DNA from: Escherichia coli | Lineage (GTDB): Bacteria > Pseudomonadota > Gammaproteobacteria > Enterobacterales > Enterobacteriaceae | Assembly: GCF_003019035.1 (NCBI RefSeq) | Contig: NZ_CP027447.1 | Length of the DNA: 64,000 nt | Direction: 5' to 3' (one strand) | Part shown: piece after piece, positions 58,558-64,000 of the stretch | Position numbering within the stretch: position 1 is the stretch's first letter | How the letters are laid out: each line of letters starts with the position of its first letter | Notes under the pieces: model-generated | What the model was told of the DNA's origin: nothing | Seen by the model: only the letters and a program-made list of their open reading frames with translations | Database searches by the model: none | Made by a program: the position numbers and the translations under genes

Positions 58558-58633
58558 GCCGATATAGCTCAGTTGGTAGAGCAGCGCATTCGTAATGCGA
58601 AGGTCGTAGGTTCGACTCCTATTATCGGCACCA
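58558..58633 (+). tRNA. thrW: tRNA-Thr (anticodon CGU); phage attachment target
   Basis: GCCGATATAGCTCAGTTGGTAGAGCAGCGCATTCGTAATGCGAAGGTCGTAGGTTCGACTCCTATTATCGGCACCA; cloverleaf with CGT anticodon and encoded CCA end. Confidence 0.9.
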
Positions 58634-58647
58634 TTAAAATCAATAAG

Positions 58648-59811
58648 TTACACATCATTAGTACCTTCCTTATTTTTTGACTGGGACAAATTTGGGACCG
58701 ATGGGTTCAGGATCGAGTCTATTTGCCGTGCGTGTTCGGTAAGGTGATTAGGTGCAAGGTGAGCATATCGACGAACCATTTCGATAGACTCCCAGCCTCC
58801 CATTTCCTGTAACACTGACAACGGGACTCCGGCTTGAACCAGCCAACTTGCCCAGGTGTGTCTCAAGTCGTGAAATCTGAAATCATCAATACCAGCCCGT
58901 CTCAGCGCCGCTTTCCAGGCTGTGTTTGCGTCATACCGCATCTTCCTTACTGTTGGCGCTTTCGTTCCGTCTGGTTTGGTACAGCTTTCCTTGTACACAA
59001 ATACCCAACGGTGATGATTCCCGATTTGTTTTTTCAATACGCGACATGCAGTATCATTCAGCGCAACGCCAATTGCGCGGTTTGATTTACTCTCTTCCGG
59101 GTTTATCCATGCCACCCGGCGCTGCATATCTATTTGTTGCCATTCAAGGTTGATGATGTTCGAGCGTCTTAAGCCTGTTGCCAGTGCAAATTCAACAACA
59201 GACTTTAATGGCTCCGGACATTCATCAATCAGCCTTTGTGCTTCATGGGGTTCCAGCCAGCGGATCCGTTTATTCTTTGGTTGAGGCACTTTAATAATTG
59301 GTGCCTTATCCAGCATTTTCCATTCACGCTCTGCGGCTCTTAGTAGGGCCTTTATAAATGAAAGATGCGTAGCCTTCGTTGCAACGGACGCTGGTTTTGG
59401 CGTGTATTCTGGAACAGGTTTCCCTTTTTTTCTGCATGCTTCTGCCCTGAGTTTCCAGTTTTCCTCATGACGCCGGTTCGTCATTTTCTGCATTGCTGAA
59501 TAAATTTTTGATTCAGTAATGTCTCTTAGTTGCATTCCTGCGAAATGTTGAAGCCAGAATCCGATCCGGCTTTTGTCATCGTCCAGTGATTTTTTATGTG
59601 CTTTCTCTTCAAGCCACCTGACACACGCTTCCTCGAACGTTATATCAGGTATTTCACCAAGTTTGCTGACCCGCCATGCTTCGGCCTTTAGCTTGTCATG
59701 GAGTTCTGTCGCCTGCCTTTTGTCCTTTGTTCCAAGAGACTGTTTAAATCTTTTACCGTTCGGCAATGTGAAACTGGCGTACCATATTTCACCTCTGCGG
59801 AAGAGTGACAT
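58648..59811 (-). CDS. int: Phage tyrosine integrase (P22-type)
   Basis: 387-aa [27 protein letters not shown]... with catalytic ...HDLRHTWAS... and ...VRRYAHL... motifs. Confidence 0.9.
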
Positions 59812-61257: not shown

Positions 61258-61784
61258 TTGCGTAATTCCGATAACTCGTTGAAGCGTTCCATAAACATCC
61301 CGTAGGCATGGCCCGGTGCCAGTGGAATAACTTTGAACATCTCTGTTGCCGGGATACCTTCCAGTACAGGCCATAAAGAGCCATCATCAAGCCCGAGATC
61401 ACGGCGTTCGGTTGCCAGCATAATGAGATCGGCATATTTCACTGGCGTGCTCATAACAGGAGGTAACCCGTATTTCTCACGGATTACTGCATCTATTTTT
61501 TCTTCCATCCGTTTATAGTCAGGAAGAAGGCGTTTCAGTGGTGCGGGGATGTCCTGGCAATACGCTTCTGTTGCATCATGCATTAACGCTTCAAAAGCAA
61601 ATTCCTGCGGCACCAGCTGGCTGCAAAGCACCGCATGTTGGGCGACACTGTAGAAGTGAGAAAGATGACCGGCAAAGCGGCAGATATTTGAAAGGGAAAC
61701 CGCGATATCGTTAATCACGATGTCGTCTTTATTTATCTTGTCATAATAAAAATGCTTCCCGGAAAAAGTTTTAATAAATGACAT
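61248..61784 (-). CDS. HD-domain phosphohydrolase (YfdR-like 5'-deoxynucleotidase family)
   Basis: 178-aa ORF with HD motif context (...VAQHAVLCSQL...ALMHDATEAYCQDIP...); GGAG RBS. Confidence 0.7.
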   Translation of the reverse strand: MSFIKTFSGKHFYYDKINKDDIVINDIAVSLSNICRFAGHLSHFYSVAQHAVLCSQLVPQEFAFEALMHDATEAYCQDIPAPLKRLLPDYKRMEEKIDAVIREKYGLPPVMSTPVKYADLIMLATERRDLGLDDGSLWPVLEGIPATEMFKVIPLAPGHAYGMFMERFNELSELRKCA

Positions 61785-61911
61785 TTTGTTCTCCACGTAT
61801 ATGCGCTGCACCGCGCTGAATTCTGGTAAAAAGAATCCCTCACCATCCGGCGATTATTGAGTAAATTACGTTTCCATAAATGCCCCCGCAGGGGCATTTG
61901 CAGTAATGAAA

Positions 61912-62736
61912 TCAGGCGGTGAAAGTACCAATAAAGGTTTCTACTTTGCTGTCCTTGAATTTCTCAACAAGCAGATCACGAAATTCGTTAGCCATTTCTT
62001 CCTGCACCGCCTCCAGCTGAATAATGCGCAGAACCAGTACAGGACGATCTCCAGTGATAATACTGAGGCGTAATTTAAACGGACGTTCTTTCAGACCTTC
62101 AAACGGAACGCATTTAAATTCAAATGCCACTGGCATAATGTCTTTGGTCTTCGCTTCGACAGACTCCATCAGGGAGCGTTTGCCGCTGAAGTCATTATCT
62201 TCAAAATCAGCGGTCTGGTTTGCTTCAATCGTGATTTTACGGACAGCCGCAGCCGCTTTTGTTGCCTGAATAGCGTCACCATTAGCATCAAAGCCCACAA
62301 GATAGTCGGCCCAGTCTTCAATCCATTCTGCCAGTGACTTCTGGGAGTTACGCTCGCCGTTAACAGACAACAGAGCAGAGAACGGTGCTGTCTTTTTCAG
62401 TTTGAGTGTGGCGGTGTTATCTGCGTGACCTGGTTCATCAATAGTACCCAGGTTAAGCACACTGACGGCACGCATATTATCAGCATCGATAAAGCAGCGG
62501 GTGCCTTCATCTGCAAGATCTTTAGAATAACGGGTAAAGTCATCGATGCTGGCAGTGGAAAGCGCACCACGGAAACGGAAGCGATTTAAATTAAATTTTT
62601 CCAGATCATGAATGCGGAAATTCTCAGGCAATGCCACAGCATCGGCACCAATCTTACTGATAATTTCATTAACACCCTGAGCAGAAATAAGGGCATGGAT
62701 TTGATTAATTGCGGTTGCGTCTAAGTTCTGAGACAT
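61912..62736 (-). CDS. Phage-associated hypothetical protein (274 aa), resembles prophage CPS-53 YfdQ as recalled
   Basis: Long ORF in the leftward early operon; family assignment from memory only. Confidence 0.6.
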
Positions 62737-62801: not shown

Positions 62802-63164
62802 TTAACGACCTGCTGCGCGGAGTTTTCCGTCAGGTTCACCGGCAAGAGTCAGTAACTGTCCCTGGTCTTCCTGCAGAATAGTCAGGCGACCACCGCGATT
62901 GACATACATCGGCGTTTCGGTGGTGTCTTCTTCGGAAATTTTCCCGCGGTTAGTCGGGCGAACATATGAGAGTTTGTGTTTGATTTTCACACGGTTCTCA
63001 TCAAATGGTTCGATTTCCAGGTTGAGTGAGACCTTACCTTTGGTTTTCGTGTTCATCACACCGGAAGCGACTTCACTGAGAACTGCGCCGATTTTGGTTT
63101 CAAATACGCCGCCGTCCAGCTCCCCGATAAATGCCTGCACATCAGTACTGCGTTCGCTAGCCAT
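62802..63164 (-). CDS. Phage hypothetical protein (120 aa)
   Basis: ORF with AGGAG RBS 8 nt upstream of the ATG at 63164; longer ORF-track version discarded. Confidence 0.6.
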   Translation of the reverse strand: MASERSTDVQAFIGELDGGVFETKIGAVLSEVASGVMNTKTKGKVSLNLEIEPFDENRVKIKHKLSYVRPTNRGKISEEDTTETPMYVNRGGRLTILQEDQGQLLTLAGEPDGKLRAAGR

Positions 63165-63212
63165 TTTGCTGCTCCTCATCATATCGACCCTGCAAGGCCG
63201 ATTAGTTTCTCC

Positions 63213-63301
63213 ACAAAACAGAGAAGAACACCTGCGGTGGCAGCCGCCCGGATGGATTGGGTTATGAGCCCGTCGTCCGGTGATGCTCTTCTCTGTTTTG
63301 T
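63213..63301. repeat. 15-bp perfect inverted repeat (ACAAAACAGAGAAGA / TCTTCTCTGTTTTGT) enclosing a 59-bp GC-rich spacer
   Basis: Arms at 63213-63227 and 63287-63301; a second hairpin GGTACCAGC-N17-GCTGGTACC follows at 63311-63345. Confidence 0.7.
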
Positions 63302-63601
63302 AAAAAGGACGGTACCAGCCGGAAGCAAGGGTACAAGCTGGTACCGCCAGGACTACACACAGCATAAAGTTGTGGTGCCGGGTGCCTCCCGGTGCCTGGC
63401 GAAGGTTGCACACCAGGCGGGTGGGTATCCACAGAAGGTCGACTGTCAGCCTCAACCTTAACCCGCGTGCGCTGAGCCGCATTCACCACAACGCTAAGGA
63501 TTCTCTCTGGTTGAAAATACTTAGCTGTTATGTGCCTGTCTTTTCACCACTTCAGGCTCGGTGGTATCCTTTTAAGCCCGTATACATAAAAGGAAAATCA
63601 A

Positions 63602-63847
63602 ATGACTTTTGATGAAAAAGAACTTGATAATGCAATTAATAAAATCATCGTAACGTCGCTCTTTTCCTGTCTCAGCGACACTCAGCAGAAACAGTTCTAC
63701 GAATCGGCTTTCAACATGATCGAGCGTTGTTGTTTCTGCGATGCCGACGAGTTACCTGAAAAAATCAGGAAACAGTTGGCTGATGCTCTTCGAGTGCGAC
63801 TTTCTGACCAATTTTCTGAAATGTGCTCTCCGAATTTGGACAAATAG
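63602..63847 (+). CDS. Phage hypothetical protein (81 aa)
   Basis: ORF with AAGGA RBS, rightward from the divergent intergenic region. Confidence 0.5.
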   Translation: MTFDEKELDNAINKIIVTSLFSCLSDTQQKQFYESAFNMIERCCFCDADELPEKIRKQLADALRVRLSDQFSEMCSPNLDK

Positions 63848-64000
63848 AAAAAGGCCATTTCCATTCAGGGTCTGATGGAAATACTTCAGCCTGTTCCAAA
63901 GCACGGCGTAAAGAGAACACAACTCCAGCCATAATCTGATGTTTCCCATTGGTCCAGCTATCGCCGCTCTGATCTACAGGGGCGGCTATGTCGTATGACC

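Follow-up and report, generated by a model that had tools for sequence, protein, structure and literature searches.

Introduction

In phage lambda, the leader of gene N, at the start of the transcript from the leftward promoter PL, contains a long duplex that is cut by RNase III, while the thrS operator presents a mimic of a tRNA anticodon arm within an mRNA leader. The early-left operon of lambda also gives rise to an Hfq-dependent small RNA, PreS (bioRxiv 10.1101/2024.10.31.621285), and DicF, the small RNA of a repressor-controlled early operon in a lambdoid prophage, is produced through termination combined with processing of the operon transcript by RNases III and E (bioRxiv 10.1101/2023.04.14.536235). 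A further prophage small RNA, PasD, was found by Hfq RIL-seq (ligation of interacting RNAs followed by their sequencing) and confirmed by northern blotting, and the STnc100 RNA has been described as structurally related to it (bioRxiv 10.64898/2026.05.13.724894). The present analysis concerns a segment at positions 63213-63345 of a 64,000-nucleotide (nt) stretch of Escherichia coli DNA (RefSeq assembly GCF_003019035.1, contig NZ_CP027447.1; hereafter the window), which lies in an SfV-like prophage and which a first-pass annotation had described as highly structured, non-coding and a candidate small RNA, paired operator or miniature inverted-repeat transposable element (MITE).

The segment is found to contain two different RNA elements on the minus strand, so that the earlier suggestion of a structured RNA is borne out as to structure and corrected in that it had envisaged a single element of unspecified strand. 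The first of these, hairpin 2, is the predicted intrinsic terminator of a small RNA of the STnc100/DicF type, and the second, hairpin 1, is a separate, conserved three-way junction located 3' of that terminator. Comparison of homologous loci establishes, at the level of sequence, the minus-strand structure and its conservation, the close linkage of terminator and hairpin 1 (2 nt apart) and the homology to the dicF locus. With moderate confidence we favor the reading that the segment forms the 3' part of a long, folded, untranslated leader RNA, in which a DicF/STnc100-type terminator is followed by hairpin 1 as an RNase III/stability element with a recognition loop.

Results

Structure and covariation of hairpin 1

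The perfect 15-bp inverted repeat that had drawn attention to the segment, with arms at 63213-63227 and 63287-63301, was recovered: 0.12 such matches are expected by chance, two were seen in none of 100 shuffled sequences, and the 15-mer ACAAAACAGAGAAGA occurs in the 64-kb window only at these two places (63213-63227 on the plus strand and 63287-63301 on the minus strand). The arms can be extended to 25 nt at 84% complementarity (63213-63237 and 63277-63301), and the core between the perfect arms (63228-63286, 59 nt) is GC-rich, as had been claimed, with 66% G+C compared with 53% for the window. The 100-nt hairpin 1 sequence has predicted folding energies of -49.1 kcal/mol (z = -7.5) for the minus strand and -46.2 kcal/mol (z = -5.8) for the plus strand, and on neither strand did any of 200 shuffles fold as well. 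Hairpin 1 outfolds shuffled sequence on both strands, and the observation of a structured segment stands. In this folding, which the first-pass annotation had recommended, both hairpins form on the minus strand, hairpin 1 well beyond its shuffles.

Hairpin 1 (63213-63301, minus strand) is a three-way junction according to its minimum free energy (MFE) fold, covariation, RNAalifold and a covariance model. The basal stem P1 pairs 63282-63301 with 63213-63232; this helix of 20 bp, which extends to 23 bp in the MFE fold, contains no bulges in the window and offers the approximately two turns of near-perfect duplex that characterize an RNase III substrate. P2 (63248-63280) is the arm bearing a conserved apex, P3 (63234-63247) is a variable hairpin that forms the third arm, and directly 3' of P1 lies a single-stranded tail, GGAGAAAC (63205-63212, minus strand), which is present in 119 of 123 distinct phage-contig contexts and nearly invariant in the alignment described below.

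Scanning of viral contigs with the hairpin 1 core pattern gave at least 120 loci, from which 41 distinct versions of 99-131 nt were aligned. Within this alignment, P1 and P2 are paired in 96.7% of cells, compared with 41-50% once the partner has been shifted by 1-3 columns, and double-sided changes are seen at 7 pairs (61 cells); neither the percentage paired nor the covariation score was reached in any of 500 shuffles. RNAalifold, to which no structure was supplied, returned the same P1 and P2 as well as P3, with 9 pairs showing compensatory change. Because G·U pairs outnumber A·C pairs 77 to 10, the minus strand is the functional one, and the covariance model derived from the alignment gives 117.5 bits for the minus strand versus 36 bits for the plus strand. 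The first-pass annotation had named a lack of covariation and of other copies as grounds for abandoning its proposal; both covariation and many homologous copies were found.

In a scan of one genome per species, hairpin 1 was matched 18 times, 17 of them in Enterobacterales (Citrobacter, Enterobacter, Klebsiella, Kosakonia, Mixta, Pantoea, Phytobacter, Pseudescherichia and Pseudocitrobacter), and the lone record labelled Chryseobacterium is probably misassigned. The Pantoea version is an extreme illustration of structural conservation, in which P1 and the base of P2 are unrelated in sequence yet paired, while GAC-GGGCUCAUAACCC-AAUCCA is unchanged. With the covariance model, no second copy of hairpin 1 was detected in the window, and no copy at all in Qin, phiES15 or HK022. 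Rfam gave no family for this hairpin and only miRNA and ribozyme noise, whether the entire window was scanned at the gathering threshold or permissive settings were applied to 4 kb and to hairpin 1 by itself. Hairpin 1 is a well-supported RNA motif that is absent from Rfam and of which no published description was encountered.

The apex of P2

The apex of P2, CGGGCUCAUAACCC (63259-63272, minus strand), consists of a 3-bp G-C stem and a 7-nt loop, CUCAUAA. Read from 63272 to 63259, it is identical over 14 nt to the anticodon stem-loop of tRNA-fMet (metZ positions 28-41, with metZ read from an E. coli genome); over the anticodon arm, 17 of 19 nt match, with the three initiator-specific G-C pairs kept and the two outer stem pairs not. 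Because the scan of viral contigs had required the apex motif, a second search was anchored on the P1 3' arm and tail only, and of the 159 matches that it returned, 138 have the exact apex core, with 20 other distinct ones carrying one or two scattered substitutions.

The thrS operator is similar in that a hairpin in its leader reproduces one tRNA's anticodon loop and upper stem, a likeness that is one of resemblance only; hairpin 1 differs in that it copies the initiator and sits in a phage operon. The Rfam tRNA models find only thrW (58558-58630) in the window and give no match at E values up to 10 on hairpin 1, and no description of an initiator-tRNA mimic of this kind was found in the searchable literature. 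Pairing of the loop with a downstream start site was considered and rejected as a general mechanism: AUGAG lies near the start codon only with YfdP-type genes (49 of 76 contexts), while first genes of the RdgC type and of other kinds lack it. The motif GACGGGCUCAUAACCCAACCCAC was also observed in a stand-alone RNA of approximately 150 nt in another phage type (locus L033, 2293-2462, minus strand; also locus L034), adjoining a capsid-like gene; this RNA has a near-consensus sigma-70 promoter (TTGACG-17-TATATT), its own terminator and no Rfam family.

Hairpin 2 and its linkage to hairpin 1

Hairpin 2 (63302-63348, minus strand) is a predicted Rho-independent terminator, as judged from its fold, a U-tract on the minus strand only and a match to the 3' hairpin of STnc100. 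Its stem of 13 pairs, including two G·U pairs, joins 63336-63348 to 63308-63320 and is followed by the U-tract C-UUUUU (63302-63306), with no U-run 3' of the stem on the plus strand; hairpin 2 thus has the G+C-rich stem and subsequent U-tract on the transcribed strand that define such terminators. The second hairpin of the first-pass annotation accordingly exists, with a perfect stem of 10 bp (63310-63319 and 63337-63346) in place of the 9 bp given there. It was missed by a consensus terminator scan because the loop limit of that scan is 8 nt.

A U-tract lies directly 5' of hairpin 1 in 118 of the 123 distinct contexts and is abutted by a hairpin in 117 of these 118, and hairpin 1 is almost always located 2 nt 3' of the terminator and 5' of GGAGAAAC. 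The contexts comprise 60 distinct terminator sequences, with the inner stem varying between UACC/GGUA, CAUC/GAUG, CGUC/GACG and UUAUCC/GGAUAA, so that the predicted terminator structure is kept while its sequence changes. Pairing of the tail GGAGAAAC with the terminator U-tract or loop was also considered and rejected, being weak and lost in members with extra nucleotides or other loops (sequences read by eye). The long-loop terminators of the ST64B type (locus L005, 4101-4170) and the Klebsiella types (locus L012, approximately 2605-2680), both on the minus strand, have a conserved AGGAGG...GUUCU in the loop, of which the AGGAGG resembles a Shine-Dalgarno sequence with no conserved start codon after it.

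The leader upstream of the terminator

The minus-strand sequence preceding hairpin 2 is itself organized into conserved parts. Between the terminator and a folded body lies a conserved unpaired stretch, UUUAUGCUGUGUGUAGUCCU (63349-63368), a candidate small-RNA seed of the form UGCUGUGUG(U/A)AGUC, whose UGCUGUGUG(U/A)AG part persists in phages of E. coli, Salmonella, Cronobacter, Citrobacter and Klebsiella despite their differing terminators; the mEp460-type phages carry another sequence, AGCCACUGCUUUGG, at the seed position, followed by the same terminator. The STnc100-like, multi-helix body (63369-63492) is closed by the pairing of GUUGUGGUG (63484-63492) with CACCACAAC (63369-63377), and its helices are kept by compensatory change among three types (E. 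coli, Salmonella and Cronobacter phiES15), for example G-C to A-U at a closing pair and CUGGUG/CGCCAG to CUGGU/ACCAG. Located 5' of the body is helix B (AUAAC-A-GCUAAG ... CUUAGC-GUUGU, 63488-63531), which occurs elsewhere with unrelated sequence (AUGAAGCGCAU/AUGCGCUUCAU in phiES15 and GAUGAGAGUAUU/AAUGCUCUCAUC in sal3) and encloses inserts of up to approximately 110 nt.

Further upstream is the conserved block A, ACCACCGAGCCUGAAGUGGUGAAAAGACAGGCACAUAAC (63527-63565), which is found alone in Klebsiella phages and in Rac (query positions 360-405) and is also present in e14, phiES15, sal3 and F1055. Block A was in addition seen standing alone in Cronobacter and Salmonella phages and holds an inverted repeat, ACCAC-N10-GUGGU; a 5' hairpin, a processing site and a protein site are candidate roles.

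Relationship to STnc100, DicF and other small RNAs

A permissive search with the Rfam STnc100 model (RF02076) gave a full-length match to the body and hairpin 2 (63522 to 63299, minus strand, 42.4 bits, E = 4.9e-7; gathering score 47), and the related loci score 40.6 (phiES15), 37.5 (sal3), 35.1 (ST64B), 29.2 (e14) and 34.4 (Qin). With the DicF model (RF00039; gathering score 48), 15.9 bits are obtained in the window and 28.5 in e14, compared with 76.7 for true DicF. The body and hairpin 2 are accordingly best regarded as a relative of the STnc100/DicF families and not as a member, because the model scores fall below threshold. The Rfam covariance search proposed in the first-pass annotation gave a match below the gathering score for the body and hairpin 2 and no family for hairpin 1.

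The closing helix of STnc100 (UGGUGAAU...CACCA), its invariant CACCGGGAGGCACCCGGCACCA hairpin and its 3' terminator are all present in the window RNA. The internal helices of STnc100, in contrast, are unlike those of the window body, and its canonical copies belong to the late region (close to Q, stx and lysis genes, with reported sites 3' of stx2 and near the late-region Pas small-RNA genes), whereas the window copy lies in an early-left leader.

The likeness to DicF extends to both setting and architecture. DicF, like the window RNA, belongs to a repressor-controlled early operon of a lambdoid prophage and lies 5' of small kil-type or early genes, and both DicF and hairpin 2 are preceded by closed multi-helix bodies drawn from one module family. 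The terminators share the 5' arm, beginning with UUGGCGGUA.CAG, and end in CCGCC-CUUUUU, with UUGGCGG...CCGCC-U5 found in Qin as well as in the window, e14 and F1055. The Qin dicF locus consists of a closed body nearly identical to that of F1055, then DicF, then an STnc100-like body 5' of dicB. By position and sequence, hairpin 2 is the counterpart of DicF in the Qin prophage. The two loci differ in that Qin has no hairpin 1 and in that the single-stranded part of the window RNA has another sequence; because of this latter difference, the window small RNA probably has targets other than those of DicF.

Compared with these families, PreS and the N-leader hairpin of lambda are more distant, with no sequence similarity to the window RNA, and the N protein and nut sites of lambda were not found here. 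The recently described prophage small RNAs svsR and HnrS were set aside, since their positions are different ones (the 3' end of cI and late genes). A further STnc100-like match in the window, weak at 19.8 bits (E = 0.3), was seen at 61741-61920 (minus strand); it covers the short gap between yfdQ and yfdR and includes the hairpin CCCCUGCGGGG.

Locus and prophage setting

In the window, proB, proA and the thrW tRNA gene are followed by the SfV-like prophage, whose genes all read leftward: int (58648-59811), xis, an ORF (open reading frame) resembling PAPS reductase, yfdR, yfdQ and yfdP. The last of these, taken from the ORF list (62802-63164, minus strand; YfdP in RefSeq and orf32 in SfV), is the first gene 3' of the leader and matches phrog_204 in a PHROG search (E = 1e-49); a small hairpin (63185-63200, minus strand) and a Shine-Dalgarno sequence, GAGGAG, precede it. 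The region of the segment is 99.3% identical to phage SfV, where it falls in the gap between orf32 (yfdP) and orf33, and 91% identical to the e14 prophage of K-12, whose annotation shows a protein gene, ymfH, at this place. A 436-nt query from the segment matches many E. coli chromosomes at 99.8% identity, and the segment is present in 2785 of 5426 complete E. coli genomes, in a median of 1 and a maximum of 5 places per genome. In SfV, ST64B, mEp460, sal3, F1055, phiES15, phiNP and e14, the element has the gene for a CI-type repressor on one side and the first early-left gene on the other (depending on the phage, yfdP, kil or an rdgC-like gene), and 63166-63349 behaves as a mosaic module among phages.

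The surrounding stretch is poor in ORFs, as previously noted, with 63165-63601 (437 nt) crossed by short or unconserved ORFs only. The accompanying description of a divergent region beside a rightward 81-aa gene is doubtful: because SfV and RefSeq annotate a leftward ORF (orf33) at the site of the 81-aa ORF, the region is more probably a spacer inside the leftward operon than a promoter region between divergent genes. The rightward 81-aa ORF (63602-63847, plus strand) and the leftward orf33 (63765-64000 and beyond, minus strand) overlap, and both match PHROG families without assigned function, so that the family searches favor neither.

In SfV, a consensus-like promoter (TTGACA-18-TAATGT) overlapped by CI operators lies directly after the cI terminator, and the window is identical to SfV at 398 of 399 positions up to position 64000. 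Carried over by way of this identity, the SfV promoter position places PL at about 64165-64195, some 160-195 nt past the window end; inside the window, no leftward promoter was found by consensus scan. The PL-proximal leader of SfV, AACAGGCAGGACGCCCACGAAGUAGCCGCC...GUCCAGGAUGA (locus L002, 5900-6000, minus strand; equivalent to approximately 64065-64165 of the window), is common to SfV, ST64B and phiNP.

Discussion

Proposed mechanism

In the arrangement that we favor, loss of CI would allow leftward transcription of the leader from the CI-controlled PL. A part of the polymerases would stop at hairpin 2, releasing a small RNA of the DicF/STnc100/PasD kind that consists of the body, the single-stranded stretch and the terminator, and hairpin 2 would at the same time attenuate transcription into yfdP-yfdQ-yfdR...xis-int. 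As for DicF, RNase E may trim this small RNA to the seed and terminator. Polymerases that read through would transcribe hairpin 1 at once, allowing the three-way junction to fold, and its P1 duplex (20-23 bp) is a plausible RNase III/stability site that would uncouple the upstream small RNA from the yfdP-int mRNA, a role modelled on the dicF locus and the lambda N leader; the invariant P2 apex would be the recognition site for a trans-acting factor. Transcription from PL, the efficiency of termination, the processing and the binding partner of hairpin 1 are all parts that we infer. For K-12, ymfH belongs to the e14 'YmfT iModulon', is co-regulated with intE, xisE and further e14 genes and has been treated as part of an intE-xisE-ymfH operon (PMC12133099), which is indirect transcript evidence for the e14 copy.

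Several points weigh against this arrangement. PL lies beyond the window and is positioned solely by comparison with SfV. Hairpin 2 has a long loop (15 nt) and only five U's, and the scores of the STnc100 model (42.4 versus 47) and the DicF model (15.9 in the window and 28.5 in e14 versus 48) are below the Rfam gathering scores. Furthermore, most homologues of hairpin 1 were found by sequence pattern, which favors conserved versions and is only partly offset by the second anchor, and the arrangement does not account for the tail GGAGAAAC or for block A.

Alternative explanations

That the region codes for protein, either a YmfH-like protein or an N-terminal extension of YfdP (through a 226-aa ORF at 62802-63482), is suggested by the annotation of ymfH over the e14 copy in K-12, by a frameshifted hypothetical protein in RefSeq and by the presence of this ORF in the window, yet it is highly improbable. 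The ORF lacks conservation between e14 and the window, the substitutions are compensatory across helices and an intrinsic terminator would lie inside the supposed gene; in addition, the region is judged not to be coding because the lengths of the homologues (99-131 nt) vary by other than multiples of three and the e14 ORF has no Pfam match. A role at the level of DNA, as a paired operator, a cruciform or a MITE, would be in keeping with the perfect 15-bp inverted repeat and with the mosaic behavior of 63166-63349 among phages, and is just as hard to credit. The arms covary (A-U to C-G, G-C to C-G) with no kept half-site, and the ratio of 77 G·U to 10 A·C pairs favors an RNA of one strand. As regards the paired operator of the first-pass annotation, 59 nt separate the covarying arms, and SfV has its real CI operators, which are different, TGTACC-type sequences, elsewhere, at PL and PR (the rightward promoter). 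Its MITE fares no better: the window has one copy and each prophage a single one (median one and maximum five per E. coli genome), always in the same position heading the leftward early operon in every locus examined, and the flanks UUUUUAC (5') and GGAGAAAC (3') have no evident target-site duplication as judged by eye.

Two further explanations accept an RNA and assign it another function. The structured leader, including hairpin 1, might be a cis-acting processive antitermination or anti-Rho device akin to HK022 put or rrn boxA, which would let polymerase pass hairpin 2 and later terminators. The setting is comparable to that of put, a cis-encoded structured RNA 3' of PL in a lambdoid phage without N: an N-like gene is not annotated in the SfV, ST64B and mEp460 loci examined, and a long untranslated leader needs protection from Rho. 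Architecture sets the two apart, for hairpin 1 comes after and not before the nearest terminator and is thereby unable to affect that termination event. At the level of sequence, the P1 3' arm reads as the boxA-like GUGCUCUU in most members, but this hexamer is base-paired in P1 and the window itself reads GUGUUCUU, which makes it a weak lead. The PL-proximal leader of SfV, which may be a put-like element, and putL/putR have GUCCAGGAUGA in common, but this likeness is not significant (equalled by 29-40 of 300 shuffles for the SfV leader and 7 of 300 for the window), and phiES15 and Qin do not conserve the stretch that matches; alignment of the window to putL/putR, with put taken as a two-stem RNA of approximately 70 nt and conserved sequence, did not rise above shuffles. 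Antitermination is accordingly considered unlikely. Somewhat speculative, and on balance doubtful, is the proposal that hairpin 1, in the leader or after excision by RNase III, mimics the anticodon arm of initiator tRNA and binds a factor that recognizes tRNA-fMet. It draws on the 14-nt exact and 17-of-19-nt match to the metZ arm with its three initiator G-C pairs, on the strong purifying selection acting on the loop while the surrounding helices change, and on the recurrence of the apex motif in another phage type, within a separate small RNA that has a promoter and a terminator of its own. The same doubt attaches to the partners proposed, namely the 30S P site with initiation factor 3, methionyl-tRNA synthetase or a VapC-type toxin that cleaves tRNA-fMet, for which hairpin 1 would be a decoy; in work attributed to Winther and Gerdes in 2011, VapC of Shigella and Salmonella reportedly cleaves tRNA-fMet in the anticodon loop, which counts in favor of mimicry. 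Only three of the five anticodon-stem pairs are kept, however, with an internal loop replacing the two outer ones, hairpin 1 has no other tRNA feature and no tRNA model matches the region, and the match could stem from descent from a tRNA fragment whose loop was recruited for another partner.

Implications and further observations

The reading of the segment as structured RNA corrects the annotation of a region that is carried by about half of the complete E. coli genomes and labelled there as hypothetical proteins (ymfH in K-12). The ymfH gene of K-12 (locus L003, 4002-4313, minus strand) spans both hairpins as well as part of the STnc100-like body, and is probably no protein gene, because its product has no Pfam match and the ORF is not conserved in the window. 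A ymfH clone triggered RcaT, the toxin of retron-Sen2, in a screen (bioRxiv 10.1101/2020.06.22.160242); this triggering could be an effect of RNA, and no study of a ymfH RNA turned up in the literature.

More generally, the DicF/STnc100/PasD group now takes in early-left leaders, namely those of SfV-, ST64B- and e14-like phages, where modules (body, seed and terminator) occur in shuffled combinations and seeds are exchanged from phage to phage. This raises the question of how phages without N pass a terminator that heads their recombination and integration genes. The hairpin 1 motif, with its loop that copies the initiator tRNA, provides a concrete and testable hypothesis: if mimicry were true, a mimic displayed on a three-way junction in the first PL RNA would bind or divert a reader of tRNA-fMet, for example as an anti-defence decoy.

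Other structured RNAs were encountered in the loci compared. In mEp460 (locus L004, 6674-6862) and ST64B (locus L005, 6731-6919), the right operon contains isrK followed by the C4 antisense RNA, beside an antirepressor-like gene and both above the Rfam thresholds, which represents a P1/P4-type RNA immunity module in lambdoid phages. Finally, the leaders of loci L008, L009, L011 and L012 (minus strand) have an extra closed domain 5' of their STnc100-like or other bodies, with two T-loop-like hairpins, CUGG-UUCGAUU-CCAG and GUCCG-UUCAAUU-CGGAC, which suggests that these leaders hold more tRNA-like pieces.

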